The notes beneath the pieces were generated by a model, which did not search any database, was not told where the DNA came from, and was given only the letters and a program-made list of their open reading frames with translations. From the NCBI GenBank assembly GCA_037441905.1, contig JBBIRF010000003.1, positions 39,690-103,689 of the forward strand: a DNA stretch of 64,000 nt, read 5' to 3'. Shown here piece after piece: positions 10,374-31,859 of the stretch (position 1 is its first letter; every line of letters starts with the position of its first letter). This stretch comes from Candidatus Aminicenantes bacterium (GTDB taxonomy: Bacteria > Acidobacteriota > Aminicenantia > Aminicenantales > CALLJL01). Made by a program: the position numbers and the translations under genes.

Positions 10374-10410
10374 AGGCGCAGTAATGAGGAAAGAAGAAGG
10401 AGGCAAGAAG

Positions 10411-10920: not shown

Positions 10921-12791
10921 TGAAAAAGCTGACGGTCGAAGACTTAAGCCGGATAAAGAAGAAGCGGCTCGAGGAGACGGCTCTGGGTGAAGCCGGGCCT
11001 TATCGAGCCCGAATCATCGTCCATCTCGGCACCTGCGGGTTAAGTGCCGGCGCCGGAGCTGTTCTGGAGGCTTTTGAAGCCCAGGTGGCCGCTCACCCTC
11101 AAGCCAAGGTTCATCTGCGCAAATGCGGCTGTGGCGGGTTCTGTGCCCGGGAGCCGATGGCCCAGGTTGAGGTTTTTGGGATAGAGCCGGTGATTTATAC
11201 CGACCTTAAGCCCAAGGATGCCAAACAGATTTTCGAAGAGCATGTGTTGAAAGGGAAGGTGGTCGAAGCTAAACGTCTACCCAAGGAGGAGCCTTTCTTT
11301 TCCCGCCAGCATTTCATCGTCCTCCGGAACCGAGGCCTGGTTGACCCGGAGAACATCGAGGACTACATCGCCCAGGATGGCTACACCGCCCTGGCCAAAG
11401 TATTGACCTCGATGTCTCCCGAGCAAGTAATCGCTGAAGTCAAAGCCTCGGGGTTGCGCGGCCGGGGCGGCGGAGGGTTCCCTACCGGCGTAAAGTGGGA
11501 GACATGCCGGCATGCGGGCGAGGAGAGAGGGGAGGAGCGATTTGTTATCTGCAATGCAGACGAAGGCGACCCCGGAGCTTACATGGACCGGAGCGTGATT
11601 GAATCCGACCCTCATGCGGTGATTGAAGGAATGATTATCGGCGCTTATGCTATCGGGGCCAAACAGGGCTATGTTTATATCCGCAAAGAGTACCCGATTG
11701 CTCTCGAGAAATTGAACCTGGCCTTAGACCAGGCGAGAGAATACGGTCTTCTTGGCGAGAAAATTCTCGGGACAGAATTTAGCTTTGATATCGAGGTCCA
11801 CCGGGGGGCGGGTGCTTTTGTTTGCGGCGAGTCAACGGCTTTGATGGCTTCGCTCGAGGGCCGAGCCGGCATTCCCCGCGCTAAATATATCCACACTGTG
11901 GAGTACGGCCTCTGGAATAAGCCGAGCTGCTTGAATAACGTCGAAACCTGGGCGAACGTCCCGGTGATAATAAACAAAGGAGCCTCATGGTTTACGCAGA
12001 TTGGGACAGGAGATGTAACCAATAACCCCTGGGGAGGGAGCAAGGGGACAAAAGTGTTTAGCTTGACGGGCAAAGTAAAGAACACTGGCCTGATCGAAGT
12101 GCCGATGGGGATTACCTTGCGGGAAATAATTTTTGACATCGGCGGCGGCATCCCCAACCAGAAGAAGTTCAAGACCGTCCAGACAGGAGGGCCGTCAGGC
12201 GGGTTCCTGCCCGAGAGCCTGCTCGACCTGCCGGTAGATTTTGACAGCTTGACAGAGGCCGGGTCGATGATGGGTTCGGGCGGGATGATTGTCGGCGACG
12301 AAGATACGTGCATGGTTGACATGGCCAAGTATTTCATCAATTTCCTGCTCGAGGAATCTTGCGGCAAATGTGTTCCCTGCCGGGAAGGGTTGCGCTCGAT
12401 GCATGCTATCCTCGAGCGGATTACCCATGGTCAGGGCAAAGAGAGTGACCTCGACGCTCTGATGGACCTTTCCAAGGCAATGATTCAATCTTCCCTCTGC
12501 GCCCTCGGCCAGAGTGCTCCCAACCCGGTTTTGACTTCCATTAAGTATTTCCGGGAAGAGTATGAAGCTCATATTCGGAACCACAAATGCCCGGCTGGAG
12601 TCTGTCCCGACCTTTACGAGATGACCATCATTCCCGAGCTATGCACCGGATGTATGGTCTGCGCTCGCTACTGCCCGACGAAAGCCATTGCGGGAGAGAA
12701 GCAAAAACCGCATCAAATTGACCGCAGCAAGTGTATCAAGTGCAATGTTTGCTATTCCCTCTGTAAGTTTAACGCCATCAAAAAAATTTAG
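10917..12791 (+). CDS. NuoF-like NADH-binding FMN/[4Fe-4S] subunit with N-terminal Trx-like Fdx domain and C-terminal 2x[4Fe-4S]
   Basis: GRGGGGFPTGVKWE FMN motif, ESCGKCVPCREG, C-terminal CTGCMVCARYCP / CIKCNVCYSLC. Confidence 0.8.
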   Translation: MMKKLTVEDLSRIKKKRLEETALGEAGPYRARIIVHLGTCGLSAGAGAVLEAFEAQVAAHPQAKVHLRKCGCGGFCAREPMAQVEVFGIEPVIYTDLKPKDAKQIFEEHVLKGKVVEAKRLPKEEPFFSRQHFIVLRNRGLVDPENIEDYIAQDGYTALAKVLTSMSPEQVIAEVKASGLRGRGGGGFPTGVKWETCRHAGEERGEERFVICNADEGDPGAYMDRSVIESDPHAVIEGMIIGAYAIGAKQGYVYIRKEYPIALEKLNLALDQAREYGLLGEKILGTEFSFDIEVHRGAGAFVCGESTALMASLEGRAGIPRAKYIHTVEYGLWNKPSCLNNVETWANVPVIINKGASWFTQIGTGDVTNNPWGGSKGTKVFSLTGKVKNTGLIEVPMGITLREIIFDIGGGIPNQKKFKTVQTGGPSGGFLPESLLDLPVDFDSLTEAGSMMGSGGMIVGDEDTCMVDMAKYFINFLLEESCGKCVPCREGLRSMHAILERITHGQGKESDLDALMDLSKAMIQSSLCALGQSAPNPVLTSIKYFREEYEAHIRNHKCPAGVCPDLYEMTIIPELCTGCMVCARYCPTKAIAGEKQKPHQIDRSKCIKCNVCYSLCKFNAIKKI

Positions 12792-12800
12792 GAGGCAGCC

Positions 12801-14576
12801 ATGGATGAGAAGAAAATCGTTACCCTCAAGATAGATGGTCATGAGGTGCAGGCGGAAAGAGGGACACCCATCATCAAACTGGCCTCGAAGCTTGGCATTT
12901 ATATTCCAACCCTTTGTCATAATGATTTCGTCGAGCCTTACGGAAGCTGCCGGGTTTGCTCGGTGGAGATGCGAAGAGGGAAGCGGAAAAGGCTGGTTAC
13001 TGCCTGTAATTACCCGGCCCAGCAGGGGGAGGAAATTTATACCGATACCGAGTGGGTGAGGGAAAACAGGCGGTTAATTCTTGAGCTGTTGCTGGCTCGT
13101 TGTCCGGAAGTGCCAGTCATTAAAGAAATGGCCGCCGCCTACGGAGTGACTGACACCCGGTTTGAAAAACTGAACTCTGATTGTATCAACTGCGGGCTAT
13201 GTGTCCGCGTATGTTCCGAGGTCGTCGGAGCCAATGCCATCGGGTGGGCAGGCCGGGGCGTCAACCGAGAAGTTACCACTCCTTTCGAGCTTAAACCCGA
13301 GGCTTGCATCGGCTGTGGCGCCTGTGCCGCGGTTTGTCCAACCGGACGAATCAGGGTTGAGCCTCTGTGGCAGACCAAAGAGGGTGAAGTTAGAGAATTT
13401 ACCCTCGGGCCGACAAGCGCCATTTATATTCCCACCTATCAGGCTGTTCCGAAGGTTCCGGTTATCGACCGCAATGCCTGTATCCACTTCAAGACAGGCG
13501 GATGTCAGGTGTGTGTGCGGGTTTGCGAACCGAAAGCGATTGACCATAACCAGGAGGAGAGGCTGGAAGAGGTCGAGGTTGGCCAGGTCTTAATCACCAC
13601 CGGTTACGACATCTTCGACCCCCGGGAGATGAAACAGTACGGCTACGGAATTTTAGACGACGTCTACAGCAGCCTGGAAATGGAATATCTGTTTAATTCG
13701 AGCGGCCCGACTTACGGCCGGGTTTTGATGAAAAACGGCCAGGAGCCGCGGTCAATCGGGATTATTCATTGTGTCGGGTCAAGAGATGTCAACCATCATC
13801 CCTACTGTTCCCGCATTTGCTGCATGTATGCCCTGAAATTTGCTCATCTGATTAAAGATAGGTCGACGGCCGATGTCTATCAGTTTTACATCGACATGAG
13901 AGCCTTCGGTAAAGGCTACGAAGAATTTTTCACCCGGATTCTGGACGAAGGAGTCAACGTCATCCGGGGACGGGTAGCGGAGGTAGTAAAGGCCGGGCCG
14001 GAAAAAGCGGCTGAAGGCAAGCTCTTGATTCGTTGCGAGGATACGCTCGTGCATCAGTTCCGAGAAATTCCCGTAGATATGGTAATCCTTTGCAGCGCGG
14101 TTGAACCAAGAAAAGACGCCGACCGGGTGCAGCGGCTTTTCACCCTCAGCCGGAGTCCAGACGGGTTCTTCCTGGAGAAACATCCGAAGCTCGACCCGAC
14201 GGCGACACCCACCGACGGCGTTTACATTGCCGGCTGTTGCCAGGGGCCGAAGGATATTCCTGATACCGTAGCTCAGGCGAGTTCAGCCGCCGCCCGGATT
14301 TTGGCTACGATTGCCAAAGGCGTGGTTGAAGTCGCCCCCATTGTCGCCCATATTGACCCCGAGGTTTGTGCCGGCTGCCGCCTTTGCCTTAACCTCTGCC
14401 CGTACGGGGCCATAGAATATCTTGAATCAGAAGGCGTCAGCCGCGTTAATGAAGCCTTGTGCAAAGGATGTGGCACCTGTGTTTCTGCCTGTCCGAGCGG
14501 GGCTTCTACCCAGCGGCATTTTCGTGACGAGCAGATTTTCGCCGAGATTGAAGGCATTCTTTTCCAGCCCCGTTGA
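12801..14576 (+). CDS. Fusion: NuoG-like N-terminus (2Fe-2S + 4Fe-4S) + HdrA C-terminal half (FAD domain part 2 + C-terminal ferredoxin)
   Basis: CHNDF..CRVCSVE 2Fe-2S, CINCGLCVRVC, CIGCGACAAVCP, then HdrA motifs HCVGSRD...YCSRICCMYALKFAHLIKD and C-terminal CAGCRLCLNLCP / CKGCGTCVSACP. Confidence 0.7.
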   Translation: MDEKKIVTLKIDGHEVQAERGTPIIKLASKLGIYIPTLCHNDFVEPYGSCRVCSVEMRRGKRKRLVTACNYPAQQGEEIYTDTEWVRENRRLILELLLARCPEVPVIKEMAAAYGVTDTRFEKLNSDCINCGLCVRVCSEVVGANAIGWAGRGVNREVTTPFELKPEACIGCGACAAVCPTGRIRVEPLWQTKEGEVREFTLGPTSAIYIPTYQAVPKVPVIDRNACIHFKTGGCQVCVRVCEPKAIDHNQEERLEEVEVGQVLITTGYDIFDPREMKQYGYGILDDVYSSLEMEYLFNSSGPTYGRVLMKNGQEPRSIGIIHCVGSRDVNHHPYCSRICCMYALKFAHLIKDRSTADVYQFYIDMRAFGKGYEEFFTRILDEGVNVIRGRVAEVVKAGPEKAAEGKLLIRCEDTLVHQFREIPVDMVILCSAVEPRKDADRVQRLFTLSRSPDGFFLEKHPKLDPTATPTDGVYIAGCCQGPKDIPDTVAQASSAAARILATIAKGVVEVAPIVAHIDPEVCAGCRLCLNLCPYGAIEYLESEGVSRVNEALCKGCGTCVSACPSGASTQRHFRDEQIFAEIEGILFQPR

Positions 14577-15741: not shown

Positions 15742-16204
15742 GTCCCAAAATGGATTTTATTCGGGCTAAAATTTCCGGGATTTTGGCTTTCATCTCCGGC
15801 GATAAACCTTCGCCGAGATGGTAGATGTTTTTCGCCTCCACGGCAATGATCATCAGTTCCCTGGGAACAGGAAGGCCAGCTGCCCGGCCGATGGCTAATA
15901 CCTGGGGGAAAGAGAGATAATGAGGCGAAGGTCCGGGGATAGCCCTTAAGTCTTTCTCTTCGAGAACCCGGACAGCACCCGTTTTCGGGTTTTCGAGTTT
16001 GATGGTGTCGATGATGACCAACCGGTCATACCCCAGGACGAGGTCAAGGAGGGCCAATCCGGAAGAGGTTGAGGCTAAAAAATCAATCGAGCCTGAGGAA
16101 ACTTCCTGGCCGGACATTTCTGCTTGCAAACAGTTGACGAGATGGAGGCCGACGCCGTCGTCTCCGAAAAGGTCGTTTCCGAGGCCAAGAACCAGGGTCC
16201 TCAT
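15707..16204 (-). CDS. Hydrogenase maturation endopeptidase (HybD/HycI/FrhD family)
   Basis: MRTLVLGLGNDLFGDDGVG N-terminus, Asp (VIIDTIK) and His (PHYLSF) positions conserved. Confidence 0.8.
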   Translation of the reverse strand: MRTLVLGLGNDLFGDDGVGLHLVNCLQAEMSGQEVSSGSIDFLASTSSGLALLDLVLGYDRLVIIDTIKLENPKTGAVRVLEEKDLRAIPGPSPHYLSFPQVLAIGRAAGLPVPRELMIIAVEAKNIYHLGEGLSPEMKAKIPEILARIKSILGLVPIAHESKRN

Positions 16205-17307
16205 TATTTTTCTGCTCGGACGGGAAGTATGACTGTAAAAGTGCTGCCTTTGTCGACTTCACTCTTTACCTCGATTGTTCCGTCATGCGCCTCGATTATT
16301 TTCTTGGCGATAGATAACCCGAGGCCTGTGCCTTTGGTCATCCCCCGTCCTGTCCCGGGCACTCGATAGAATTGGTCGAAAATGAACGGTAGATGTTCAG
16401 GGGGAATACCTACGCCTGTATCCTGGATGTCGACGCCAACCTTTCCGTCGACCTGTCTTATTCGCAGAATAACTGAGCCTCCCGGACGGTTGTACTTAAT
16501 CGCGTTATGGATGAGGTTGGCCAGGGCTTGTTCGAGGCTCGCTTCATCGGCCATGATTATATCGGCAGGGGCAGTTTTTTCCAGACTTAAAGAAACCTTG
16601 TTTTCGCCAGCCAGGGGTTTGAAAGTCTCCATCTGGCGCCGCAGGATTGCCTCCAATGACACAGGCTTAAACTTGGCAATTAGTTCATTCTTGTTAATCC
16701 TGGCGAGGTCAAGCCAGTCGTTGATCAGATGAAGAAGACTGTCCAGCCTCTCTCTCACCCTTAAAATCATGTCTTTTATCGTCGGCGGAATTTCGCCGGC
16801 ATACCCGCCGAGGATGGTTTCGAAGTATTGCTGGATTGAAACGAGCGGGCTGCGGAGTTGATGGGTAACAAGCGTGATAAAATTTTCCTCCAGGAGCTTT
16901 TTCTCCCGTCGGAGTTTTTCCGCCTCCCGGGCGAGCTCCCTTCTTTCCAAGGCCCGTCGGATAATTACCCGCAGCTCCTCGGGAGTGAAGGGTTTCGGAA
17001 GAAAATCATAAGCCCCTTTTTTCATCGCTTCGACGGCTGATTCCACGGTGGCATACCCGGTGATGACAATCGGGATGATTTCCGGGTCGACCTCCTTAAT
17101 CCTGTCAAGAACATCAAACCCGCTGAGGCCGGGCATTTTAAGGTCGACTAAGGCAATATCGGGCTTGATGGCGGCGGCTTTATCCAGGCCGGTCTGTCCG
17201 TCAGCCGCCAGTTCCACCTGGAAACCATGCCGGGTTAGAATTTGCGAACACGAATCGCGCATCGATTCTTCATCGTCGATAACCAGGACCAAAGGCTTTT
17301 TTTCCAT
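16204..17307 (-). CDS. Hybrid two-component protein: N-terminal receiver + HisKA + HATPase_c
   Basis: Receiver DDEESMRD...DLKMPG, H-box LVTHQLRSPL, G-boxes DTGVGIP / GTGLGLSIAKKI. Confidence 0.75.
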   Translation of the reverse strand: MEKKPLVLVIDDEESMRDSCSQILTRHGFQVELAADGQTGLDKAAAIKPDIALVDLKMPGLSGFDVLDRIKEVDPEIIPIVITGYATVESAVEAMKKGAYDFLPKPFTPEELRVIIRRALERRELAREAEKLRREKKLLEENFITLVTHQLRSPLVSIQQYFETILGGYAGEIPPTIKDMILRVRERLDSLLHLINDWLDLARINKNELIAKFKPVSLEAILRRQMETFKPLAGENKVSLSLEKTAPADIIMADEASLEQALANLIHNAIKYNRPGGSVILRIRQVDGKVGVDIQDTGVGIPPEHLPFIFDQFYRVPGTGRGMTKGTGLGLSIAKKIIEAHDGTIEVKSEVDKGSTFTVILPVRAEK

Positions 17308-17779
17308 CGGGGCTTCCTCCGGTGTTCTTCCTCCGTTATTTTAGCCTAAAACTCACGGTTCGGGTAGCTTATTTTTTGGGCGCCGTTCCCTCTTGATAAA
17401 GTCTTCCCTTTGCCATTAGCCATCTCTTTTGGTCTTTACGAGGGTCTTATGATTGCCCGGTTAGGGTTACGCTAAATAAAGCAAGGGATGAATTATTCAA
17501 CGAGATTGCAGCTTATTTCCTATTCTCTTTTTCTTCTAACCAAGAAGCGGGTTTGACCTGCCCTCAAGACAAGTTTTGTTGCTAATCAACCAACGGAAGC
17601 AGCCTGGTTTTCGTTCACAATATCAGGGCGCTTCGGATAATGAGTCATTTTTTTGAAGCCAATAAGGCTCTTTTGGCTGGCTAAAGAAGCTTTGAAACCC
17701 GAAATTTATAAAGAGCAATACCTCCTAATTTCAGCTCTTTTTATCAAAATTTCCCTGTCAATCGTCCGGTTGTTCTTCT

Positions 17780-18184
17780 TTATTTTTTCAGGAGCTTTTC
17801 GATGCGCGCCAAGAGGTCGGCAGCCACCACCGGCTTGTCGATGTAATCATCCGGACCAACCATGCCCTGCTCTTCGCCCTTGAATTGAAAACGGGTTCCC
17901 GCAATTTCTTTAACGGCCGAGACAAAGATAATCGGCGTCTCTTTGAATTCTTTGAACTCTTTCGAGGTTTTAATCGCGTGGCAGAGGGAGAAACCATCGA
18001 ACAGGCTGTCCATCATAATGTCAAGCAGAATCAAGTCTGGCTTTTCGCTGAAGATTTTTTCCTTGGCTTCCTTCGGGTTAGCCGCTGTCGCTACCTCATA
18101 AAGAGCTGATTTCAGGATGGGAGTAACGGCAGCGATAAAATCAGGGTCGTCATCGATGACCAGGATTTTTTTGGGAGTAGCCAT
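17780..18184 (-). CDS. Single-domain CheY-like response regulator receiver
   Basis: KKILVIDDDPDF ... LILLDIMM receiver motifs, 134 aa. Confidence 0.7.
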   Translation of the reverse strand: MATPKKILVIDDDPDFIAAVTPILKSALYEVATAANPKEAKEKIFSEKPDLILLDIMMDSLFDGFSLCHAIKTSKEFKEFKETPIIFVSAVKEIAGTRFQFKGEEQGMVGPDDYIDKPVVAADLLARIEKLLKK

Positions 18185-18573
18185 TAATTATTCCTCCTTT
18201 CTTCTTGAATAAAGGCATTTTTTATTGCCAGTTTTAACTCTTCCAGACCGAATGACTTGATAAAATAAAAAAAGATATCTTGTTCCCGCACCTTGGCTTC
18301 GAGCTTTTTCGAGTTTTTCTTGGTCATCATTATTACCTTAAGCTTTGGGTCAAGACTTTTCAAGATAGAAACAGCTTCGTATCCTTTCATCTCGGGAAGG
18401 TCGACCTCCAGCAGAAGGCAGTCGTAGCTGCCCTCGCTTATTTTCTTGATCGCCTCGGAAAGGTTTTTCCCTGTATCGACGCTGTAGCCATCATTTTCAA
18501 CCTGAGCTGCCAGGTCTTTTCTTTCCCGCGGGTCCGGGTCGATTATAAGGATTTTTTTCTCCGCCGACGTCAT
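18184..18573 (-). CDS. Single-domain response regulator receiver (start at MTSAEKKILIID, ATG 18573)
   Basis: Receiver motifs ILIIDPDPRERKDL ... LLLEVDLPEMKG; GGAG RBS before internal ATG; upstream part of ORF-track ORF lacks homology. Confidence 0.6.
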   Translation of the reverse strand: MTSAEKKILIIDPDPRERKDLAAQVENDGYSVDTGKNLSEAIKKISEGSYDCLLLEVDLPEMKGYEAVSILKSLDPKLKVIMMTKKNSKKLEAKVREQDIFFYFIKSFGLEELKLAIKNAFIQEERRNN

Positions 18574-18904
18574 GGCCAGCTCCCTACACTCAGGGATAGA
18601 GCAATTAACGTGCCAATTTAGCACCCGCCGCAGGGGCAGTAGCCATGCTAAATTATTGAAAATAAAGGATTTATTTTGGAGGAAAGACTGGCCGGAAGTG
18701 ATTCCTGGGAATAAATTATACCCTGAGGTATTTCTCCCCATCCTTATTCCAGAATTGCCACCTTATCGAAAGAAGAATAGAATCTTATCAAAATAAGTAT
18801 TTTCCGACAATAAAAAAAGCTTGCTTTTTTTCATTTTTTCGTATTAGGAATAGAAAGCAGGCAGACGTCCAGTGGCCTGGGGATTGATGCAGGATTAAAA
18901 GGCA

Positions 18905-18995
18905 GGCAGAGCAGCCTCCGGGCTGCTCTGTGGTCTTTTTGACCACTGGACGGGTGGGGCCAACCCCGAAAAGCGGGGCTGGCCCCATCTTTTTA
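18905..18995. terminator. Cluster of three stem-loops (CAGAGCAGCC-tccg-GGCTGCTCTG; TGGTC-ttttt-GACCA; GGGGCCAACCCCG-aaaa-GCGGGGCTGGCCCC followed by ATCTTTTTATTTC)
   Basis: Perfect/near-perfect GC-rich inverted repeats read directly; directly downstream of minus-strand hydrogenase operon stop (18993); T-tract on plus side, weaker U-tract on minus side. Confidence 0.5.
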
Positions 18996-19373
18996 TTTCA
19001 GGACATCGCTGATTTTAGCGATGGCCTCAAGCACTGGTTCGGAAATGTCCTTAGATGTCAAGCTTTGTGGTTGAATCCCGAGAAGGTATGATTTTTTCAC
19101 GTGACCGGGGCTGAGCAGGCTGAGGAACGAAGGCAGAAGCCGGTGGCTGAGGGAGGAACTCCAGAGGGCCTGAGCGAGCGGCATTAAGGTAATCCTGCCC
19201 GGGGCGGCACCGAAGTTAAGCGCGTCAATCAGGATGAAAGGCCGATTCTGGTTAGTTTCCCAGAAAACTTCGTCCTCCTCGATTTCCGACTCAAGGTAGG
19301 CGTTTTGATAACCGCTGGCTTTCAGGGTTTCAGCCACCACCAGGCCGGCCCCGTCGTCGCCCTTATCAACGCA
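18993..19373 (-). CDS. Hydrogenase maturation endopeptidase-like segment in the same frame as the hydrogenase large subunit, separated from it only by TGA (19374-19376); first canonical start (GTG 19340) would delete the conserved N-terminal strand and Ni-binding acidic motif
   Basis: ...KPLRPIIVGI-TGA-CVDKGDDGAGLVVAETLK aligns to MRTLVLGLGNDLFGDDGVGLHLV of the standalone protease; downstream Asp (ILIDAL) and His (SHRLLPSF) conserved. Confidence 0.5.
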   Translation of the reverse strand, partial: CVDKGDDGAGLVVAETLKASGYQNAYLESEIEEDEVFWETNQNRPFILIDALNFGAAPGRITLMPLAQALWSSSLSHRLLPSFLSLLSPGHVKKSYLLGIQPQSLTSKDISEPVLEAIAKISDVLK

Positions 19374-20732
19374 TCAGATGCCGACGATTATGGGGCGAAG
19401 CGGCTTCAACTCGGCTAACTTCTGTTGCCAATCAACTTCTTCTGTCGTCCGGACCTCGACAAGATGGGCTGAACAGCTGATACAGGGGTCAAACGCCCGG
19501 ACGACCATTTCCAGCCGGTCGCGGATTTGGTCTTCCTTTCCCTCGTTCAGGAGTTTTTGGGCCGCCAGGAAGCAGTAGCGCTCGATTTCCTCCGCATTCT
19601 GGGCCGTGGGCGTGATGATGTCGGCAAAGACGATGCGGCCGTCTTTGATTTCATAATGGTGGATGAGTAGACCTCGCGGCGCCTCGACCAGGCCAGTTCC
19701 TTTGCCCTCCCGGCTCGAATAGGCCGTAATCCCGGGGTCTTCAGGGTATTTAAGAATTTCGTCAACGAGAGCGGGAATTTTTTCAAAACAATACATAATC
19801 TCGATAGCTTGGGCGGCATTCTGGAAAAGCGGGTTTCTCTTCCACCTTTCGTTATAGAAACGGCGGAGAATTTTCTTGGCTTCGCCGGACAGCCTTTCAC
19901 CCAGCAGGTTCACCCTTGCCTGGGCGCCAACCGTATAGCTTTTTCCCTGCTACCGGCTCCGCTTGGCCGTCGAATGAGGAACGAAAAACTCGTTGGTCAG
20001 ACGACGGTAATCATCACGATGGATTTTTTCGCCCGTCGAAACCAGAATCTCATCTCCCCAGAGGCCATACTTTCCGTCGCCGGGTTCACAACAAGCGAAG
20101 ATAGCCTCGTCTTCCGGAATATCAGGATAGGGTAGGCTGCAGAAAAGCTCGGTGGTTTTATGGACAAACGGCATGAATTGAATAGCCCTGGCTTTAATCA
20201 GCAAGAGCTCTTCCCTGGTGGGGTAGCGGCCGAAACCGCCGATGACGGGGTTTTCCCCGTGGATGAACCGGCCGCTCAAGACCTTCATGATGTTATTCCC
20301 GAACTGCTTCATTTCCAGGGCAATCTTGACCTCGAAGGGAAACCGGGTTGCCATGGCGATGGCGTTCGGGAACCCGACAAAATCGGGCAGAGCAAGGTAG
20401 TAGAGGTGGAGAGAATGACTTTCGATATATTCACCGAGATGCATCAGTTCGCGAAGCAGGGTAACCTTTGGCGGCACCTTGACACCGAGGGCGTTTTCCA
20501 TCGCCCTGATAACGGCGTTTTTATGAGAAAGAGTGCAAATGGCGCAGACCCGGGGAGTTATGCTGACGTCTTCCTCCGGTGTTTTACCCACGGCTAATCT
20601 TTCGACGAGTCTCGGGCCTTCATTTATCAGAAACTTAACTTCGGTGACGACTTTCCCGTCTACAGTTACGGTTACTCCACCGTTACCTTCAACTCGAGCC
20701 AGATGGTCGATAGTTATCTTTTTCATCGTCAA
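19374..20732 (-). pseudogene. Group 3b (sulfhydrogenase alpha-like) [NiFe]-hydrogenase large subunit, single frame interrupted by in-frame TAG at 19950-19952 (pseudogene, sequencing error or recoded)
   Basis: N-terminal RVCAICTLSH (RxCGxCxxxH variant) and C-terminal DPCISCSAH Ni-Fe ligand motifs; 260-aa ORF and 179-aa ORF are in the same frame, conserved ...HSTAKRSR*QGKSYTVGAQAR.. spans the stop. Confidence 0.65.
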
Positions 20733-21511
20733 CGCCTCCCTGTTTTCAATTGGTGAAAGAATTCAGTAATCGTTGTCCCGGCATAAATCGACATGCGTTG
20801 TTTGATGCTTTCTAAATCAAACCCTTTGTCGAGGAGAAGCTGAAATTCAGCCACCCGGTTAGCCTCTTCCGTCGGCCCCCAGCACCCAACACAAGCCAGG
20901 TTGTGCGAGGGACAGACTGCTCCGCAGCCAGCTTTAGTCAGCGGCCCGAGACAGGGGATGTTCTTGTTGAGCAAGCAATCGTTCTCATGCCATTTACATT
21001 CGAGACACACCGGAAAGCGATAAAGCTCTGGCGGATGGCCGGCCAGGAGCCGGGTAAAAGTTGCCAGGAACTGTTCCTGGCCAATCGGGCAGCCAGGCAA
21101 ATAATAATCAACTTTGATAAAAGCATCGATGGGCTGAGAAGGGATAGGATGAACGTTTGTATGTTTGAGGTCCTGATAGACCTGACGAAATTCCTTCTCC
21201 CATGTGCCCGCGGCCGTAAGGGCTGCCTGGATTCCTCCTTCACAAGCACAATTACCAATAGCAATGACCACGCCTGCCCGTTCGCGGATGCTCAATAGTT
21301 CGGTTTTTTCCTCCTCGGTAGTGACCGACCCCTCGACTAAAGCCACGTCTACAGGACCGTGACTGTTGTCACTCTTGGCCATCAGAAAAGCTTCAATATC
21401 AGCGGCCTGGAAAATATTAACCAGCTCGGATTCACAATCGAGGATGAGGAGGGCATCGCCCGCACAGCCGGTCAGCTCAAAGACGCCGATTTTCACGCGG
21501 GTTTTTTCCAT
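20729..21511 (-). CDS. Group 3 [NiFe]-hydrogenase small subunit (delta-like)
   Basis: ELTGCAGD, GNCACEGG, YYLPGCP, CLGPLTKAGCGAVCPSHNLACVGCWGP cluster motifs. Confidence 0.8.
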   Translation of the reverse strand: MEKTRVKIGVFELTGCAGDALLILDCESELVNIFQAADIEAFLMAKSDNSHGPVDVALVEGSVTTEEEKTELLSIRERAGVVIAIGNCACEGGIQAALTAAGTWEKEFRQVYQDLKHTNVHPIPSQPIDAFIKVDYYLPGCPIGQEQFLATFTRLLAGHPPELYRFPVCLECKWHENDCLLNKNIPCLGPLTKAGCGAVCPSHNLACVGCWGPTEEANRVAEFQLLLDKGFDLESIKQRMSIYAGTTITEFFHQLKTGRR

Positions 21512-21524
21512 CGGGGTTTCCTCC

Positions 21525-22382
21525 TTAAATTAACTCTCTCATGTGGAGCACATCCCAGTAAGTAAAAACAGGACCGTCCAAACAGGTATAAATATAATCA
21601 ATCGCGCAGTGGCCGCATTTGCCGACACCGCATTTCATCCTTCTTTCGAGAGTCATTAAAATCTGATGTTTCGGAATGTTAAGCTTGATTAACTCTCTGA
21701 TGACGAACTTGTACATCACTGGCGGGCCGCAAACGAGAGCAAAGGTGTTCGCCGGGTCGACATTTTTTAACTTGGGAAAGAGAGTCGTGACGACACCGAT
21801 GTTTTCGGTCCAGGTTCCGGTATCATCAGCGTCAACGGTCAGATGGCATTCCAGGTCTCCCCGCTTCTTTAAATCAAAATATTCCTCCCTGAAAATCATC
21901 TCGGCCGGTCTTTTCGCGCCGTAGAGCACGCTCACCCGGCCAAACTGGTCCCGGTTATCCAGGCAGTAGAGAAGCACAGACCGGAGGGGTGCGGCCCCAA
22001 GGCCGCCGACGACGATGATGATATCTTTTCCGGTCATAGCTTCAACGGGAAATCCATTGCCGTAGGGTCCCCTCAGACCGATTAAAGAATTTTCCTTAAG
22101 ACGGAACAGGGCGTTCGTGACCGTCCCCACTCGCCGAATGCAAAACTCGAGTAAACCCGGCCTGGAAGGAGGGGAAGAAATGGAAAAAGGCGCTTCCCCT
22201 GCTCCGAGGACGGAAAGCATGGCAAACTGTCCAGCCCGGTAACGAAAGCTGAGCGCTTTTTCCATATCGGTCAGGCGGACCTGGAAGAATTTCACGTCAG
22301 CCGTCAAATTATAAGCCCTGACAATCCGGGCTGGTTCGGGTAGGAGAGGGTTGGGGAGAGTGTTTTTTAATTCCGTGTTCAT
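21525..22382 (-). CDS. Sulfhydrogenase gamma-like FAD/NAD(P)-binding subunit (HydG/AsrB-like) with C-terminal [2Fe-2S] CxxxxCxxC
   Basis: RAGQFAMLSV...PFSISS FAD motif, VGGLGAAPL NAD(P) motif, CGVGKCGHC. Confidence 0.7.
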   Translation of the reverse strand: MNTELKNTLPNPLLPEPARIVRAYNLTADVKFFQVRLTDMEKALSFRYRAGQFAMLSVLGAGEAPFSISSPPSRPGLLEFCIRRVGTVTNALFRLKENSLIGLRGPYGNGFPVEAMTGKDIIIVVGGLGAAPLRSVLLYCLDNRDQFGRVSVLYGAKRPAEMIFREEYFDLKKRGDLECHLTVDADDTGTWTENIGVVTTLFPKLKNVDPANTFALVCGPPVMYKFVIRELIKLNIPKHQILMTLERRMKCGVGKCGHCAIDYIYTCLDGPVFTYWDVLHMRELI

Positions 22383-23443
22383 GGAGTCACCTCAGAAGAA
22401 AGCCGAGCCCAAAAGGCGTTGACGGGCTTGCCTTCCAGGGCATCGGCCACTGATTTTACGTTAATTCCCACCGGGCAGGTAACCAGGCAGCGGCCGCAGC
22501 CGACACAGCTTGGTTTTCCGTATTTCGAGCCATACGCCTGGAGTTTATGAGTATACCAGAGCTTGAGCCGCGAGGATTTTTTCTCCCGGAAGTTCTCGCC
22601 GCCGGCCACCTGAGAATATTCGGGCAAGGTGCAAGAATCCCATTCCCGGACGCGCAACCCCGGCTTCCCGGCCAGCCGGATTTCGTCGCGGACGTTATAA
22701 CAATTGCAGGTGGGACAGACCATCGAGCACGACCCGCAGGCTAAACAGGATGTGCCTAATTTTTCCCAGAGCGAATCACGGTACTTGAGCTCCATCAGGT
22801 CAGGCATAAACACATAGTTTATCGAGGTCTTAAATGCCCTGGCCCTGTTCTCTCGCCAGTCGATGTACTTCTGGATGTCGGCTGTCGCCAGAGTCTCCTC
22901 GAAAAACTCGGGGACAAGGCGGACGAGGTCGTCTCCCTGGCTGGAACCTATCCAGGCGAGGTAATTGTCTCCCAGGTCGGTGAAAAAGAGGTCATAGCCT
23001 TCTTCGATGATGTCGGTATGGGTAGACTGGCAGAGGCAATTTTCGTCAGGCCAGCAGGAAAGACCGAGAATAAGGGTCCGCTGCCTGGCCTTAAGATAAT
23101 AAGAATCAGGGAAAACCTGGCTAAAAATGCGGTCGAGAATGAGAAGACCGTGAATGTCGCAAGGATGAATCCCGAACAGAATCCGGTCCTTGACCCAGGA
23201 AAAATCCTCTTCATAGCCGCGGGAGGTGAATTGGAACATGGTGAAACTCGGGGGGACGAAAAGCTTCTTGGGCGGCAGAAGAGTCCGGGTCGCCTTGAGG
23301 TCGATTTTGGGAATCTCGGACGACGCTACCGGGGCAAAGCTTGTTTTGTTTTCCCTGGTCAAAGGAGCCCACAGCTCCGCTCCGTCGGAAATGGCTCCGA
23401 GGAAGGGATACAGATTTTCCTTCTTAAGCTTTAGGATTCTCAT
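22379..23443 (-). CDS. Sulfhydrogenase beta-like subunit (HydB/AsrA-like, multiple [4Fe-4S])
   Basis: CLACGSCSMVCPTCNC and CVGCGRCLVTCP motifs; operon position upstream of gamma, small, large subunits. Confidence 0.7.
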   Translation of the reverse strand: MRILKLKKENLYPFLGAISDGAELWAPLTRENKTSFAPVASSEIPKIDLKATRTLLPPKKLFVPPSFTMFQFTSRGYEEDFSWVKDRILFGIHPCDIHGLLILDRIFSQVFPDSYYLKARQRTLILGLSCWPDENCLCQSTHTDIIEEGYDLFFTDLGDNYLAWIGSSQGDDLVRLVPEFFEETLATADIQKYIDWRENRARAFKTSINYVFMPDLMELKYRDSLWEKLGTSCLACGSCSMVCPTCNCYNVRDEIRLAGKPGLRVREWDSCTLPEYSQVAGGENFREKKSSRLKLWYTHKLQAYGSKYGKPSCVGCGRCLVTCPVGINVKSVADALEGKPVNAFWARLSSEVTP

Positions 23444-23702: not shown

Positions 23703-25070
23703 TCAGAGGGAGTCGAGGTTGATCCCGTATTTCTTAATCTTGGCCCACAAGGTCTTCCGGTCGATACCGAGGATTTGAGCGGCGGCGCTTCTATTTCCTT
23801 TTTGATCCTTGAGAACAGCCGTGATGTAATCTTTTTCAACTTCTGCCAGAGTCCGTCGGGGGCTCATCCAGCTGGGTTCGGAGGCAACCCGGCCGCTTAT
23901 TCCGTGGGTAATTAGGTCTTCGAGGTTAATCGAGTCTACCCTGGCGAGGACAACAGCCCGCTCGATTGTATTCTCTAATTCTCTGATATTTCCCGGCCAA
24001 TCATACTCCATTAGAGCCTTCATCGCTTGGGGCGTAATGCCTTTGATAGCCTTTTTGGCCTTTCGGTTATATTTCTGGAGGAAGTGCTCGGCTAAGAGGG
24101 TAATATCTTCTTTTCTTTCCCGCAGCGGGGGTAAATGAAGCGGGACGACATTAAGCCGGTAGAAAAGGTCTTCCCGAAACTTTCCCGCCTTGACAAGCTC
24201 AGCCAGGTTTTCGTTAGTCGCCGCCAGGATACGGACATCTACTTTGATCGGCCGGTTGCTGCCAATCCGGGTAACTTCTCTTTCCTGGATTACCCGCAGG
24301 AGCTTCGCTTGAATATTAGGGCTGATGTTGGACACTTCGTCAAAAAAAATAGTCCCGCCGTCAGCCACCTCGAACCGGCCGTGCTTGGTCTCGTGGGCAC
24401 CGGTGAAAGAGCCCTTGACATGGCCAAAAAGTTCGCTTTCAAAAAGAGTCTCGACCAGGGCGCCACAATCGACGACGACAAAAGGAGCGTTGCGTCGGCT
24501 GCTATGCCGGTGAATCTCGCGAGCAATAAGCTCCTTTCCTGTGCCGCTTTCTCCCGTGATCAGGACAGTCGATTCCGTCGGGCTCACCCTTCTGACGACG
24601 TCGAGCACTTTTTGCATGGCCGGACTCTTGCCAATGACCAGCTCGAATTCTATCTTGGCTTCGAGTTCCTGCCGCAAGTACATGTTTTCATAAAAAATCC
24701 GCCTGTTTTCCAGCGCTTTCCGGGTGACGACGCGGAGCTCCTCAGGGGTAAAAGGCTTGGGCATGTAATCGAAGGCGCCTCGTTTCATTGCTTCGACCGC
24801 TGATTCGATTGAACTGTAACCCGTGATGATGATAACCGGGGTTTCCGGGCTGACCTCTTTTATCCTTGAGAGAACATCCATACCCCTAATTCCAGGGAGT
24901 TTGAGGTCGAGAAAAACCAGGTGAAAAGTGTCTTTTTGAAAAATCTCCAGCCCTTCTTTTCCTTCCCTGGCTTGCTTGACTTCGTAGCCTTCCCGCGAGA
25001 GCACCTGATTCATCGCGTCGCGGATGGCTTCCTCGTCGTCAATGATTAGAATCTGAGCTCTTTCGGTCAT
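23703..25070 (-). CDS. Sigma-54-dependent response regulator (NtrC family: receiver + AAA+ + Fis-type HTH)
   Basis: Receiver ILIIDDEEAIRD, Walker A GESGTGKE, GAFTGA-like GSFTGA, C-terminal HTH. Confidence 0.85.
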   Translation of the reverse strand: MTERAQILIIDDEEAIRDAMNQVLSREGYEVKQAREGKEGLEIFQKDTFHLVFLDLKLPGIRGMDVLSRIKEVSPETPVIIITGYSSIESAVEAMKRGAFDYMPKPFTPEELRVVTRKALENRRIFYENMYLRQELEAKIEFELVIGKSPAMQKVLDVVRRVSPTESTVLITGESGTGKELIAREIHRHSSRRNAPFVVVDCGALVETLFESELFGHVKGSFTGAHETKHGRFEVADGGTIFFDEVSNISPNIQAKLLRVIQEREVTRIGSNRPIKVDVRILAATNENLAELVKAGKFREDLFYRLNVVPLHLPPLRERKEDITLLAEHFLQKYNRKAKKAIKGITPQAMKALMEYDWPGNIRELENTIERAVVLARVDSINLEDLITHGISGRVASEPSWMSPRRTLAEVEKDYITAVLKDQKGNRSAAAQILGIDRKTLWAKIKKYGINLDSL

Positions 25071-27045
25071 TGTCTGATTCCTTTTGCAGGGGCAGAACCA
25101 CGGTAAAGGTTGAACCTTTCCCGGGTTCGCTCGAAACTTCTATCGTCCCTTGATGTTTCTGGATGATGCTGTAGCTGATGGCTAAGCCAAGACCGGTACC
25201 TTTGCCGACTTCTTTGGTGGTGAAAAATGGTTCGAACAGCCGTGACATATCCTCTGGCCTGATCCCGTGGCCGTTGTCCGCAAAAGCGATTCTTATTTGC
25301 TTTTTCTCCAGGTCCATCGAAGTGCTTATGGTTAGCGTTCCTCGGCCGTCCATGGCTTCGGCGGCGTTAAGGATAATATTCATGAAGACCTGCTGTAACT
25401 GGGAAGCATCGGCAATCACACGGGGCAGCGCGCTATATTGCTTATTAATGGCGATGTTCTGGAATAGAGCCTGTTTTTCCATGATGGCCAGAGCCCGCTC
25501 GACAACTTCGTTGACGTCAGTGGCTACCATTTCCGGTTCTTTCGGCCGGGCAAACTCGAGCAACCCTTTAACGATATCCTTACACCGGCTGGTCTCTTTA
25601 ACTATCTTTCTTAAATTTTCGTAAGCTGGAGTATTCTTAGGCGTATCTTCGAGCAGCAGATGGCTGTAGATGAGAATGGCTCCCAGGGGGTTATTAATTT
25701 CATGAGCCACGCCCGCGGCCAGTTTGCCCAGGGAAGCAAGCTTTTCCGACTGAATTAGTTTCGTCTGCATCTCGGTCAGCTCTCTGGTTCTTGCTTCCAC
25801 TTTTTTCTCCAAGGTCCTCCCCCATTCCATCAGCGCTTCGTTCGCCTGACGGAGCTGGTCAATCATTTCGTTGAAGGAGGAAGCCAAATGGCCGAGTTCA
25901 TCCTTTGACCTGATATCAACCTTATGCGAGAGGTCACCCCTGGCTATTTCCTCCGTAGCCATGACCATTCTTTGCAGCGGTCGGATGATCTGCGTTGTCG
26001 AGAAATAGAGGATGACAAGCAGGAAGACGACGCAGAGCGAGGCCATAAAGGTAAAAGTTAGCATTAGTTTATTGGCCGTATCGATGTAAGGCTTTTCGAG
26101 CATGCCGACATAAAGGATGCCGATGATTTTGCCCTCGACATTTCTAATGGGTTCATAAGCGGTAATGTACCAGTCGGTCACGACAAAGGCCCGGTCGACC
26201 CAGGCCTTACCTTCGTCCAGGACTGCCTTTTTTACCTGGGCTGAAAGCAGGGTTCCGATGGCTCTTTCGCCCTTTTCGTTCCGGACGTTGGTCGAGACCC
26301 GGAGGTCGTTGAGAAAAATAGTGGCCGTGCCAACGTCCCGGCCTTTATATTTTTCGCCCTTAAAAACGGTTTCCTTAATCCGGTCGACGATTTCGTAATT
26401 CCGGTTGAGGAGAATTCCTCCATAAAGCACCCCCCGGGTGCGATGGCTTTCATCCTGAATGCTGGCCGCCGCCTTGAGGACAAGCCCGCGGTCTTCGAAG
26501 CTCTTGGGCTTCGGCTCTGCCCGGGGAGTGGGGATGAATTCAAGATAAGCTTGCGCCGCCAGGTCTTCGCCCTCAAGCCTGAGCTGCTCGCCCGGGACAA
26601 CCTGAGGGCCGGCTACTACCCCGCCTTTCAGGGCTAAGCGGACGAGTTCATCTTCGGCTTGAGAATCACCCACGACCCCTGGATTTCTTGTCCGGATGAT
26701 AACTTTTCCAGCTCCGTCCGTAAGCGTGAGAAAATCCAGCCCGAAATCTGTCCTTACCCGGGATAAATACCGGAGCAAAAGGTCGGTATTTCCCGATTTG
26801 AGGGCTTCTTGAATGCTTTCTCTTGAAGCCGTGAGAGTGACGATCTGCTGAATATCGTTAAGTTTTTCGTTGAAAACCATCCAGGCAGCGGCCAGGTCGT
26901 GCTTGACTTTCAGCTGGGCCTGGCCGATGAGAGTGCGCCTAACCAGGCGCGAGCCGATGACGAGCGAAATCAGCCCGCCGACAACAATAACTGCCAGGAA
27001 GCTCAGAATGAGCTTCGTCCGGAGGGAAAGAGCCCTTTCTTTCAT
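25039..27045 (-). CDS. Sensor histidine kinase with periplasmic sensing domain, HAMP, HisKA, HATPase_c
   Basis: Two TM segments flanking ~280-aa extracytoplasmic region, H-box AHEINNPL, G-boxes DNGHGI / GTGLGLAIS. Confidence 0.8.
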   Translation of the reverse strand: MKERALSLRTKLILSFLAVIVVGGLISLVIGSRLVRRTLIGQAQLKVKHDLAAAWMVFNEKLNDIQQIVTLTASRESIQEALKSGNTDLLLRYLSRVRTDFGLDFLTLTDGAGKVIIRTRNPGVVGDSQAEDELVRLALKGGVVAGPQVVPGEQLRLEGEDLAAQAYLEFIPTPRAEPKPKSFEDRGLVLKAAASIQDESHRTRGVLYGGILLNRNYEIVDRIKETVFKGEKYKGRDVGTATIFLNDLRVSTNVRNEKGERAIGTLLSAQVKKAVLDEGKAWVDRAFVVTDWYITAYEPIRNVEGKIIGILYVGMLEKPYIDTANKLMLTFTFMASLCVVFLLVILYFSTTQIIRPLQRMVMATEEIARGDLSHKVDIRSKDELGHLASSFNEMIDQLRQANEALMEWGRTLEKKVEARTRELTEMQTKLIQSEKLASLGKLAAGVAHEINNPLGAILIYSHLLLEDTPKNTPAYENLRKIVKETSRCKDIVKGLLEFARPKEPEMVATDVNEVVERALAIMEKQALFQNIAINKQYSALPRVIADASQLQQVFMNIILNAAEAMDGRGTLTISTSMDLEKKQIRIAFADNGHGIRPEDMSRLFEPFFTTKEVGKGTGLGLAISYSIIQKHQGTIEVSSEPGKGSTFTVVLPLQKESDNDRKSSDSNH

Positions 27046-27132: not shown

Positions 27133-28596
27133 TTAATCTCTTTTTATCTGTTCCACCAACTCGCGACGGCTGTTGTAAATGTTGATGATTAGAGGCATGT
27201 CACCCGGAAGGGCATGAGTGCCGCATGCATGGCAGGGGTCATACGGACGAAAAGCCATCTCCGCTAAATTGAGTAGTCCGTCGGAAACCTTGCCTTCCTT
27301 GATAAAAGCCTTGGCTGCTTTTTCGATCGACATCGTAATGGCGGCTGAATTATTCATCGTGGCGACAATCAGGTTGGCTTCAGTCACAATGCCTTTTTCG
27401 TCGGTTTTATAATGGTGGAATAACGTTCCCCGGGGAGCTTCGACTACCCCCACTCCCTCGGTGGGCGTTTCTGTCGGCACCCGCCGGATGTCCGGGCTGG
27501 TAATTTCTTTGTCTTCCAGCAGGGCTACCATAGCCTCAGCTGCCTGGAGGGCTTCGATCAGACGAGCCCAGTGGAATGCCAGGGTGTTATGAGCCGGTTT
27601 TCCTCCGAGGACCTGGTACATCCTTTCGTATTCCTGTTGCGCTAAGGGAGTGGCCATGCCGTCAGCCGCGTTTAAGCGGGCGAGAGGCGCCACTCGGTAA
27701 ATACTGGTTTCTCTTCCCTCTACGAAGCCCTTCCAGCCAATTTTTTTCAGGTAAGGAAACTTAATGTAAGTCCAGGGCTCGACGTGTTCAGCCACGTGTT
27801 CGAGATAATCAGCGGCCTTAAACTTGGCGAACTCCTTGCCTTCGGGGTCGACCACCCGGATCAGGCCGTCATAAAAATTAACCCTGTTCTTCTCATCAAC
27901 CAGCCCCATGTAATAAGTGACGAGTTTATAAGCGTCGCCGACTACCAGGTCGACGTACTCTTTGTTTTTCAAGACGACGTCGTCGAAGATTTTCAGGGCA
28001 AACTTGGCGAATTCAACCGCATACCGGGCTGTCTCTAAGAATTTTAAGCGATGTTCCTCATCCAGCCCTTTGGAAACGCCGCCCGGAAGTCCGCAGACAG
28101 GGTGAATAACCTTGCCGCCGAGGTAGTTGATGATATCGCGACATTCCCGGCGGACCCTGATTACCTGGCCGCCGATTTCCAGCCCTACTTTACCCAGGAC
28201 ACCCAGAATATTTCTCTCCGCCGCCGGCGCCTGGGGGCCGACGACAAAATCAGGACCGCCCAGGAAAAAGAAATGAAGCGAATGGTCCTCCATCATAAAG
28301 GTGTTGTAAATTAACTCTCTTATCTTGCGGGCGGTTGGGGTTGGCTCGACATGAAAAACGGCGTCAACGCATTTTGTCGAGGCCATATGATGGGCGGTGG
28401 GGCAGACACCGCAGATGCGAGGGGTAATCCGGGGCATCTCTTCCACCGGACGGCCGACCGCGAACTGCTCAAAACCGCGCAGCTCCGGCACTTGAAGAAA
28501 AGCCCTTTCGACATCCCCGGCATCATTGAGGAAAATCTCTATCTTTCCGTGACCTTCAAGCCTGGTTATCGGGTCGATGGTTATTCGCTGACTCAT
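27133..28596 (-). CDS. mvhA: Mvh/Vhu-type (group 3c) [NiFe]-hydrogenase large subunit
   Basis: PRICGVCPTAHH and DPCHACGTHA motifs, 25-aa C-terminal extension. Confidence 0.85.
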   Translation of the reverse strand: MSQRITIDPITRLEGHGKIEIFLNDAGDVERAFLQVPELRGFEQFAVGRPVEEMPRITPRICGVCPTAHHMASTKCVDAVFHVEPTPTARKIRELIYNTFMMEDHSLHFFFLGGPDFVVGPQAPAAERNILGVLGKVGLEIGGQVIRVRRECRDIINYLGGKVIHPVCGLPGGVSKGLDEEHRLKFLETARYAVEFAKFALKIFDDVVLKNKEYVDLVVGDAYKLVTYYMGLVDEKNRVNFYDGLIRVVDPEGKEFAKFKAADYLEHVAEHVEPWTYIKFPYLKKIGWKGFVEGRETSIYRVAPLARLNAADGMATPLAQQEYERMYQVLGGKPAHNTLAFHWARLIEALQAAEAMVALLEDKEITSPDIRRVPTETPTEGVGVVEAPRGTLFHHYKTDEKGIVTEANLIVATMNNSAAITMSIEKAAKAFIKEGKVSDGLLNLAEMAFRPYDPCHACGTHALPGDMPLIINIYNSRRELVEQIKRD

Positions 28597-29567
28597 TTTA
28601 TTGCCTCCAGTTTCCTGCGGCCAAGAATTGACTTGGGCAGGCTAAAACGATAGAAGGTGCCGGCGGGGTCGGCGATAGTCTGGACAACCTTTTCTATTTC
28701 CTTTTCGTCCTTAAAATCGATAAGCGAAGCTAAGGCGGAAAGGAATTTGGCGCCCTGGTCGTAGACCTGGTCGGTTGGCCCGAAGCAACCCCGGCAGGGC
28801 ATGTTGGCCGTGATGCATCTTTCTTCGCAACCAGTTCTCGTAGCCGGTCCCATGCAGATAACCCCCTGGGCCAAAAAGCACTTTTCCGGGTCAAGAAGGA
28901 CTTCCCACGGCCGCTTAAACTCTTTAATCGTTAATTTCTCCGGCTTGGTCTTATTCCGGTCGCAATCGTCGCACAGAGATTTGTTGGGAGAAAGCACAGC
29001 TCCCTTCGGAGGGAGCTTACCCTCTAAAATAGCCCCGACAGCGTTGAGGATGAGGTGGCGGGGAGGAGCACAGCCGGGGAGATAATAGTCAACATCGATA
29101 ACCTGGTCGAGGGCCCTCACGGTGTCATAAAAAGCGGGCAGGGTTAATTCTTTGCCCTCGACAACGACTTTTTCCTGAGGAACAACGCCATCAGGGTTAA
29201 CCGTGGACGGGGTGGTGAAATAGGCCCGGCGGAAAATGGCCTCTTTGTTCCAGAAATTCGCCAGCCCGGGTATTCCGCCAAGATGCGAGCAGCTTCCGAA
29301 GGCAACGACGAGCTGCGATTTCCGGCGGAGCAGATGAACCATTTCTTCCTGTTCCGATAACCTGACCGACCCGTTAATAAAGCTAACCGCGATCGAGCCG
29401 TCAGCCATGGCCTCGACATCTTTTTTCTTAAAATCGAGGGCTACAGGCCAGAAAACGATGTCAACCGCTTCGACTACCTTAAGGATGTCTTCGGCCAGGT
29501 CGACAACCGCTTCCTCGCAGCCGCCGCAAGATGCACACCAGTAAAAAGCAACTTTGGGCTTACTCAT
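28593..29567 (-). CDS. mvhG: Mvh-type [NiFe]-hydrogenase small subunit
   Basis: [12 protein letters not shown]-terminus, multiple Cys cluster motifs ([21 protein letters not shown]). Confidence 0.8.
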
Positions 29568-31848: not shown

Positions 31849-31859
31849 TTCTTACCTCC

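Follow-up and report, generated by a model that had tools for sequence, protein, structure and literature searches.

An interrupted hydrogenase gene with two in-frame stops

Why should an in-frame TAG stand in the middle of an otherwise well-conserved [NiFe]-hydrogenase gene? This question is raised by a 64-kb stretch of the metagenome-assembled contig JBBIRF010000003.1 (referred to as the window), which comes from an uncultured Aminicenantales bacterium. The gene in question encodes alpha, the large subunit of a cytoplasmic group-3b [NiFe]-hydrogenase. An earlier note, made from the letters of the window, had offered a very recent nonsense mutation, a sequencing error, or programmed suppression or recoding as explanations. 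Here, we report that the gene contains a second in-frame stop and that both stops are missing from all relatives. We conclude that the gene is probably a pseudogene that was inactivated very recently in this strain or population. The first two options of the note are still live, whereas suppression or recoding found no support. The parts of the gene, in window positions, are as follows.

18993..20732, minus strand: whole alpha gene, 579 codons plus the final TAA, with two in-frame stops inside; a natural fusion of alpha (group-3b [NiFe]-hydrogenase) with a HycI-type maturation endopeptidase, as judged from translation and homologue coverage
20523..20552, minus strand: N-terminal Ni-Fe ligand motif RVCAICTLSH, residues 61-70, intact
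19950..19952, minus strand (cta on the plus strand): in-frame TAG at codon 261, TAC to TAG, conserved Tyr lost
19464..19490, minus strand: C-terminal Ni-Fe ligand motif DPCISCSAH, residues 415-423, intact and downstream of the TAG
19374..19376, minus strand: in-frame TGA at codon 453, GGA to TGA, invariant Gly lost
19350..19376, minus strand: cluster of 7-8 window-specific nucleotide changes, codons 453-461, from comparison with relatives
18996..19397, minus strand: HycI/HybD-like maturation endopeptidase domain, residues about 446-579, from a profile and from PF01750 in homologues

The TAG reported in the earlier note was confirmed by translation and by conservation across the stop. It closes an open reading frame (ORF) of 260 amino acids (aa) at 19950..20732 on the minus strand. 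Past the TAG, the frame is open over 19949..19377, and the listed 179-aa ORF (19374..19913) falls within this part. Large-subunit conservation spans the stop (HSTAKRSR-stop-QGKSYTVGAQAR, also given as HSTAKRSR-stop-QGKSYTVGAQARVN; KRSRYQGK in homologues), and both Ni-Fe ligand motifs are intact, as had been stated. The TGA at 19374-19376, which had been treated as the end of the gene, proved to be a second in-frame stop, located 192 codons downstream of the TAG in the same gene. The frame continues beyond it for 126 more codons to 18993 (KPLRPIIVGI-stop-CVDKGDDGAGLVVAETLK). A degenerate DNA pattern for H-S-x-x-K-R-S-R-TAG-x-G-x-x-Y-x-V-G-A matched the window once, with 0 matches expected from 100 shuffles; the interrupted frame is beyond chance. 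With a TAG at codon 261 and a TGA at codon 453, the alpha gene of the window has no uninterrupted frame for a functional subunit.

Both stops are derived, single-base changes

Homologues were collected with the 579-aa joined translation, in which both stops were replaced by X, and 5043 proteins matched at the cut-off of E ≤ 1e-10. The best 120 of these 5043 homologues were uninterrupted, 576 to 608 aa long, and covered 96 to 100% of the query. The two closest were 90% and 89% identical, the second being a protein from a metagenome-assembled genome (MAG) listed at NCBI as 'Candidatus Aminicenantales bacterium'. Residues at the two stop positions were counted in two alignments, one with 18 homologues and the other with 120. 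Across the 120, the TAG position was occupied by Tyr in 113 and by Phe in 7, and the TGA position by Gly in all 120.

At the nucleotide level, we compared the window with syntenic intact loci from two Logan assemblies (L001 and L002) and two NCBI Aminicenantales MAGs (L003 and L004). The L001 gene has the same length as the window gene (1740 nt), without indels and with 84% nucleotide identity. The closest relative, the protein P0123, is encoded on contig L005 (Logan SRR12999147), which shares 96.9% DNA identity with window positions 17529-22060 over 4.5 kb. The codons orthologous to the TAG and the TGA are TAC and GGA in L001, L003, and L005. Comparison of the orthologous codon in relatives, a check that the earlier note had proposed, yielded TAC and no TAG. 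Because TAC and GGA are present at 96.9% DNA identity, both stops must have arisen, or been introduced, within species-level divergence. A further replacement in the region of the N-terminal motif, Ile62Val, is common to the window and the conspecific P0123. The ancestral TAC-CAGG at the TAG site contains CCAGG, a possible methylation motif. At the 5' end, the earliest in-frame start of the window gene is a TTG at 20730-20732, which overlaps the stop of the small-subunit gene delta (TTGA). L001 has an ATG in place of this TTG, and L003 and L005 start alpha at an ATG located two codons further on (MKKITIDH).

The TAG form of the site pattern had 0 matches in GTDB species-representative genomes and 0 in JGI metagenome contigs, and its TAY version matched 81 metagenome stretches. 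As controls, the TAG form matched the window and the TAY form matched all four fetched loci. When the repaired protein was compared by tblastn with 100 fetched loci, stops within the conserved body were seen in the window only. The three fragments of the window protein (258, 179, and 115 aa) occurred once each in a collection of 15 billion proteins, all on one NCBI contig of 131,042 bp.

The two lineage-specific changes, TAC to TAG at Tyr261 and GGA to TGA at Gly453, would inactivate the alpha gene. Translation would end after 260 residues, and the product would keep only the N-terminal CxxC pair, without the DPCxxCxxH nickel ligands and the protease domain. According to established [NiFe]-hydrogenase biochemistry, both cysteine pairs are required for the Ni-Fe site, so that a 260-aa product lacking the DPCxxCxxH ligands would have no Ni-Fe site and would give no active enzyme. 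We infer that no full-length alpha protein is made and that the stops are present in the DNA of the cells and not merely in the consensus. Two nonsense codons against an intact orthologue at 96.9% nucleotide identity are as expected of a pseudogene. The change of GGA to TGA at Gly453 is, in addition, a further disabling mutation in the operon of the kind that the earlier note had linked to a decaying pseudogene. A nonsense codon in a MAG gene that a 97%-identical relative lacks, and that comes with a second one, is a common kind of case, either a pseudogene or an error.

The large subunit belongs to group 3b and is fused to its protease

The Pfam domains of the operon products were Fer4_22 (beta), FAD_binding_6, NAD_binding_1, and DHODB_Fe-S_bind (gamma), Oxidored_q6 (delta), and NiFeSe_Hases (alpha). 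The best PDB match of alpha was the alpha subunit of sulfhydrogenase I (SHI) from Pyrococcus furiosus (HydA, 9nez; E = 3e-97), with HyhL from Thermococcus kodakarensis close to it (5yxy; E = 2e-96); both match over residues 5-426. Matches to Mvh (group 3c; 3e-49), NAD-reducing (3e-45), and F420-reducing (1e-40) hydrogenases were weaker. On these structure and domain matches, the group-3b assignment made in the earlier note holds. P. furiosus HydA also shares both CxxC ligand motifs and the Tyr at the TAG position ('KHSHYKGRPFMVGA'), and the window has the four subunits beta, gamma, delta, and alpha of group-3b systems in one operon. The archaeal alpha subunits differ in that they end a few residues past CxxH, whereas the clade of the window adds a linker of ~20 aa and a HycI-like protease. 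The window gene differs further by its two interruptions.

Evidence for the protease came from the relatives. PF00374 and PF01750 (HycI) were both precomputed on about half of the best 120 homologues. A profile of the C-terminal 140 residues (A2, from 15 homologues) matched Escherichia coli HycI (2e85) in the PDB with an E value of 1e-7 over 134 of 142 profile positions. T. kodakarensis HycI (5zby) and HybD (1cfz) were matched as well, and all three matches run end to end, with E values between 1e-7 and 3e-3. The protease domain of the window alone had no Pfam match at E < 0.01, and the domain was identified through the A2 profile against the PDB and the precomputed PF01750 on relatives. Gly453, the residue replaced by the TGA, corresponds in E. 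coli HycI to the Gly of 'CVGN' and is the invariant Gly of the G-x-G motif that opens the protease domain. The protease residues that are invariant across the family, Asp459, Asp460, Asp503, and His530, are retained in the window; from published HybD work, we take Asp459/460, Asp503, and His530 to be metal ligands. The domain thus resembles HycI and HybD (PF01750) in its G-x-G-N...GDDG-x-G motif and its conserved Asp and His positions. The known members, however, are free-standing proteins of ~150-165 aa, while in the window clade the domain is joined in cis to the subunit that it presumably cleaves, and in the window itself a TGA breaks it at the invariant Gly.

As judged from these alignments, alpha is naturally fused to its maturation endopeptidase in this clade, giving a 579-aa product. 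The gene therefore does not naturally end at the TGA. The linker follows DPCxxCxxH, and the fusion is also found in the loci L001-L012 and in many of L020-L099. It is present in at least 120 homologues (576-608 aa), which come from Aminicenantes and from MAGs labelled Eubacteriales, Clostridia, or Desulfaltia. In distant relatives (42-51% identity), the subunit stops 5 residues past CxxH, and a separate protease gene lies immediately downstream; the unfused relatives are L027, L034, L049, L054, L075, and L097. This unfused arrangement is presumably the ancestral state. The fused protease would belong to the C-terminal extension that it presumably cleaves off, which would mean processing in cis. 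No description of a fusion between large subunit and endopeptidase was found in the literature that we searched.

TAG and TGA are ordinary stops in the window

Under programmed recoding or suppression, a suppressor or near-cognate tRNA would read the TAG, or it would be decoded as pyrrolysine; the TGA would stand for selenocysteine or be read through; and a full-length enzyme would still result. Such a reading would fit the perfect preservation of the remaining ORF, including both ligand motifs and the family-invariant protease residues, and the rarity of TAG among the stops of the window. We nevertheless consider it very unlikely. The 56 genes of the window end in TGA (32), TAA (21), or TAG (3), so TGA is the commonest stop. 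One of the TAG codons (12789-12791) closes a NuoF-like gene at 624 aa, the length that this gene also has in L003 and L004. TAG is therefore rare in the window yet a genuine terminator, and TGA and TAG are both ordinary stops. All other pairs of ORFs in the same frame in the window proved to be ordinary adjacent genes: a NuoF-like/NuoG-like pair at 12789, a NuoE-like/ferredoxin-like pair at 34102, a DRTGG-like/PHP pair at 35844, and a pair of metallo-beta-lactamase-fold and YacP genes at 61201. No other interrupted gene was found across the 64 kb.

The machinery for recoding was not found in the window either. Its only tRNAs are tRNA-Lys, tRNA-Glu, and tRNA-Val, with no suppressor tRNA in the 64 kb. 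No pyl or sel gene was detected among the ~55 window genes scanned with Pfam, and pylT and pylSBCD are absent within the window. The 70 nt from the TGA had no fold resembling a selenocysteine insertion sequence (SECIS; z = +0.44, with 130 of 200 shuffles as good) and no Rfam match. The region after the TAG had no fold resembling a pyrrolysine insertion sequence (PYLIS) that was better than shuffles (z = -1.21).

Comparison with known recoded genes likewise argues against recoding. The pyrrolysine genes mtmB, mtbB, and mttB resemble the window gene in that they have an in-frame TAG within an otherwise conserved enzyme gene. Their TAG is conserved among orthologues, and their genomes carry pylTSBCD. 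The TAG of the window, in contrast, is absent from the 96.9%-identical L005 and all other relatives, and there are no pyl genes in the window. A [NiFeSe]-hydrogenase (DPUxxCxxH) also has an in-frame TGA in its large-subunit gene; in that enzyme, selenocysteine takes the place of the first Cys in the C-terminal ligand motif, and a SECIS hairpin follows. In the window, this motif has Cys (DPCISCSAH), and the TGA is found at the Gly of the protease, with no structure after it. Typical recoded positions are Lys-like for pyrrolysine and Cys for selenocysteine, whereas the stops of the window replace a Tyr and an invariant Gly.

Both stops could also be real but read through, by suppressor tRNAs or leaky termination with Tyr inserted at UAG, which would give a reduced amount of the full-length, self-processing fusion. 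An ORF free of other damage would be explained by such read-through, which we regard as highly improbable. Reassignment of the code in the lineage, for example TGA to Gly (translation table 25) or TAG to Tyr, would account for the exact alignment of the stops with Gly and Tyr of the homologues. TGA and TAG, however, close 32 and 3 of the 56 window genes, the TAG of the NuoF-like gene gives the orthologous length, and the operon genes match their orthologues in length. Moreover, no other window gene has an in-frame stop, and the conspecific L005 uses TAC and GGA. The probability of reassignment is practically negligible, and we regard it as in effect already refuted.

The gene could further be a functional split gene that yields two or three separately translated, assembling polypeptides. 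Split hydrogenase large subunits do occur in nature, as in VhuA/VhuU of Methanococcus voltae. In the window, the earliest start codon after the TAG is a GTG at 19913, which is 12 codons on and lies within a conserved block (YTVGAQAR), 12 residues of which would be dropped; this position rules out a natural split into two genes. The first start after the TGA (GTG at 19340) would cost the protease its G-x-G...GDDG motif. None of the relatives has a split at these two sites, and the natural stops in relatives are found only 5 residues past CxxH. A functional split is thus exceedingly improbable.

Recent inactivation or a consensus error

The main rival of a recent inactivation is an artefact of sequencing, polishing, or assembly, in which the gene is intact (TAC and GGA) and both stops are wrong base calls in the consensus. 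We judge such an artefact to be possible but rather unlikely. To compare the two, we calculated the ratio of non-synonymous to synonymous substitution rates (dN/dS) by NG86 for the window versus L005, with the intact pair L001 versus L003 as a baseline.

Hydrogenase part, residues 1-423: window versus L005, 0.084; L001 versus L003, 0.058
Hydrogenase part before the TAG: window versus L005, 0.058; L001 versus L003, 0.068
Hydrogenase part after the TAG: window versus L005, 0.115; L001 versus L003, 0.040
Linker and protease: window versus L005, 0.42; L001 versus L003, 0.20
Delta (small subunit): window versus L005, 0.02; L001 versus L003, 0.166
Gamma, C-terminal part: window versus L005, 0.03

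In the rest of the operon, dN/dS was 0.02-0.07, and delta and gamma showed one non-synonymous difference each from L005. The differences were then polarised with L001 and L003 as outgroups. The window lineage had accumulated 13 synonymous and 15 non-synonymous changes in the alpha gene (the two stops included), and the L005 lineage 12 and 7. Of all coding substitutions in the window lineage, 28 of 41 fell in the alpha gene, although it accounts for 45% of the bases compared (binomial p = 0.002); for the L005 lineage, the count was 19 of 39 (p = 0.38). The low missense load of the neighbouring genes and the 28 of 41 changes in one gene favour a gene-specific process, which fits better than random consensus errors. 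The raised dN/dS in the linker and protease part (0.42 versus 0.20 in the baseline pair) and after the TAG (0.115 versus 0.058 before it) points the same way. The most likely such process is a real inactivation followed by a short spell of relaxed selection.

Several of these results are difficult to reconcile with an artefact. Delta and gamma are essentially clean, and a concentration of errors in one gene would not be expected. About 3.6% of the possible single substitutions in the alpha gene create a stop. At a uniform error rate, two or more nonsense errors in 1.7 kb are improbable, with P ~0.007 at 0.2% error and ~2e-5 at 0.01%; the scarcity of non-synonymous changes in the neighbouring genes set the range of error rates considered. 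Furthermore, the alpha gene has no indels relative to L001, L003, and L005 in 1.7 kb, which shows that the consensus is not indel-prone, and the 64 kb yielded no second interrupted gene.

Other observations weigh against the pseudogene. The contrast in non-synonymous and synonymous changes between the window and L005 lineages was not significant (Fisher p = 0.37), and dN/dS is still far below 1, which also counts in favour of an artefact. None of 199 near-invariant columns has a window-specific missense change, so that at highly conserved positions nothing but the stops has changed. Frameshifts are absent, and the family-invariant protease residues are kept. By rough arithmetic, simple neutral drift after a first hit would have a likelihood of only ~5-10% of giving two nonsense codons and this little further damage, and an artefact is still plausible because the gene is otherwise almost undamaged. 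In addition, the two stop bases are known from the deposited consensus alone. The protein fragments come from a single contig, so that no independent assembly confirms the stops.

The type and position of the changes bear on the same question. At both stops, the change is a transversion of a G:C pair (C>G and G>T), which would suit miscalled bases. An argument from the mutation spectrum (13 transversions and 15 transitions in alpha versus 2 and 11 in the neighbouring genes of the window lineage) was rejected as uninformative because the transversion fractions of the L005 lineage are similar everywhere. The TGA lies inside the 27-nt cluster of 7-8 changes, which includes G453stop, S454C, L455V, N457K, and R/Q461G and falls in a variable loop of the protease domain. 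The cluster could stem from one multi-nucleotide mutation event, from recombination over a short patch, or from mis-polishing of this region, and the last would be in line with an artefact. Two of the changes, at codons 453-454, create the quasi-palindrome GCATC-T-GATGC.

Ordinary bacterial pseudogenes share with the window gene single-base nonsense changes relative to intact orthologues, sometimes more than one per gene, and intact neighbours. The window gene differs by being unusually fresh, in that it lacks frameshifts and its conserved sites are free of missense changes, and because of this freshness a consensus error remains a rival.

Gene neighbourhood

The other genes of the operon and the remaining hydrogenase loci of the window are given below.

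22379-23443, minus strand: beta, Fer4_22, 354 aa, equal to L001/L003
21525-22382, minus strand: gamma, FAD/NAD-binding and Fe-S domain, 285 aa, equal to L001/L003
20729-21511, minus strand: delta small subunit, Oxidored_q6, 260 aa, equal to L001/L003
14709-16204, minus strand: free-standing HycI-family protease (165 aa) beside hypB and hypA, intact, syntenic in L001, L003, and L004
27133-30006, minus strand: Mvh-type [NiFe] hydrogenase, from Pfam, intact
36182-37558, minus strand: [FeFe]-hydrogenase-like gene, 458 aa, Fe_hyd_lg_C and PF04060 FeS domain, intact

Beta, gamma, and delta (20729..23443, minus strand) are all intact, and their synteny is kept in L001-L005. A sigma-54-dependent two-component system (23703-27045, minus strand) lies directly upstream of the operon; the Cache/HAMP domains of its kinase and the Response_reg-Sigma54_activat domains of its regulator are those listed for the L001/L003 orthologue. 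Downstream of the operon, two single-domain response regulators and a hybrid kinase are encoded (16204-18741, minus strand). The synteny of these flanking regulators in relatives suggests dedicated regulation of the hydrogenase operon. The free-standing HycI-family protease presumably serves the Mvh-type hydrogenase of the window.

The window is dense in genes for hydrogen metabolism and electron bifurcation. One set (27133-34557, minus strand) comprises an MvhA-like large subunit of 487 aa, a small subunit of 324 aa, and MvhD/FlpD, followed by NuoG-like, NuoF-like, ferredoxin-like, and NuoE-like genes. Another (8012-14576, plus strand) comprises HdrC-like, HdrB-like (CCG), short 280-aa HdrA-like, NuoE-like, NuoF-like, and NuoG-like genes. 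The short (~280 aa) HdrA-like FAD/Fe-S protein occurs in two paralogous three-gene sets (38380-40693, minus strand, and 8012-10373, plus strand). A typical HdrA has ~650 aa; the length of ~280 aa is conserved in L003 and L004 and is therefore not a truncation in this genome. At 34535-38378 (minus strand), the genes flanking that of the [FeFe]-hydrogenase-like protein encode two HATPase-type proteins, a protein with a PHP domain, and two small products of ~110-120 aa, and the whole looks like a sensory or regulatory hydrogenase module.

Implications

As the candidate for recoding fails, the finding of the stops is itself of little weight. It carries the lesson that an isolated in-frame stop in a MAG needs comparison with near-identical relatives before recoding is invoked. 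The fusion of the large subunit to its endopeptidase is the more notable by-product of the analysis, and it is widespread and not specific to this window. For the organism, the other hydrogenase systems encoded in the window may make a loss of the 3b enzyme tolerable. At most, the interrupted gene would represent one Aminicenantales strain that is recently losing its group-3b hydrogenase while retaining its other hydrogenase systems.

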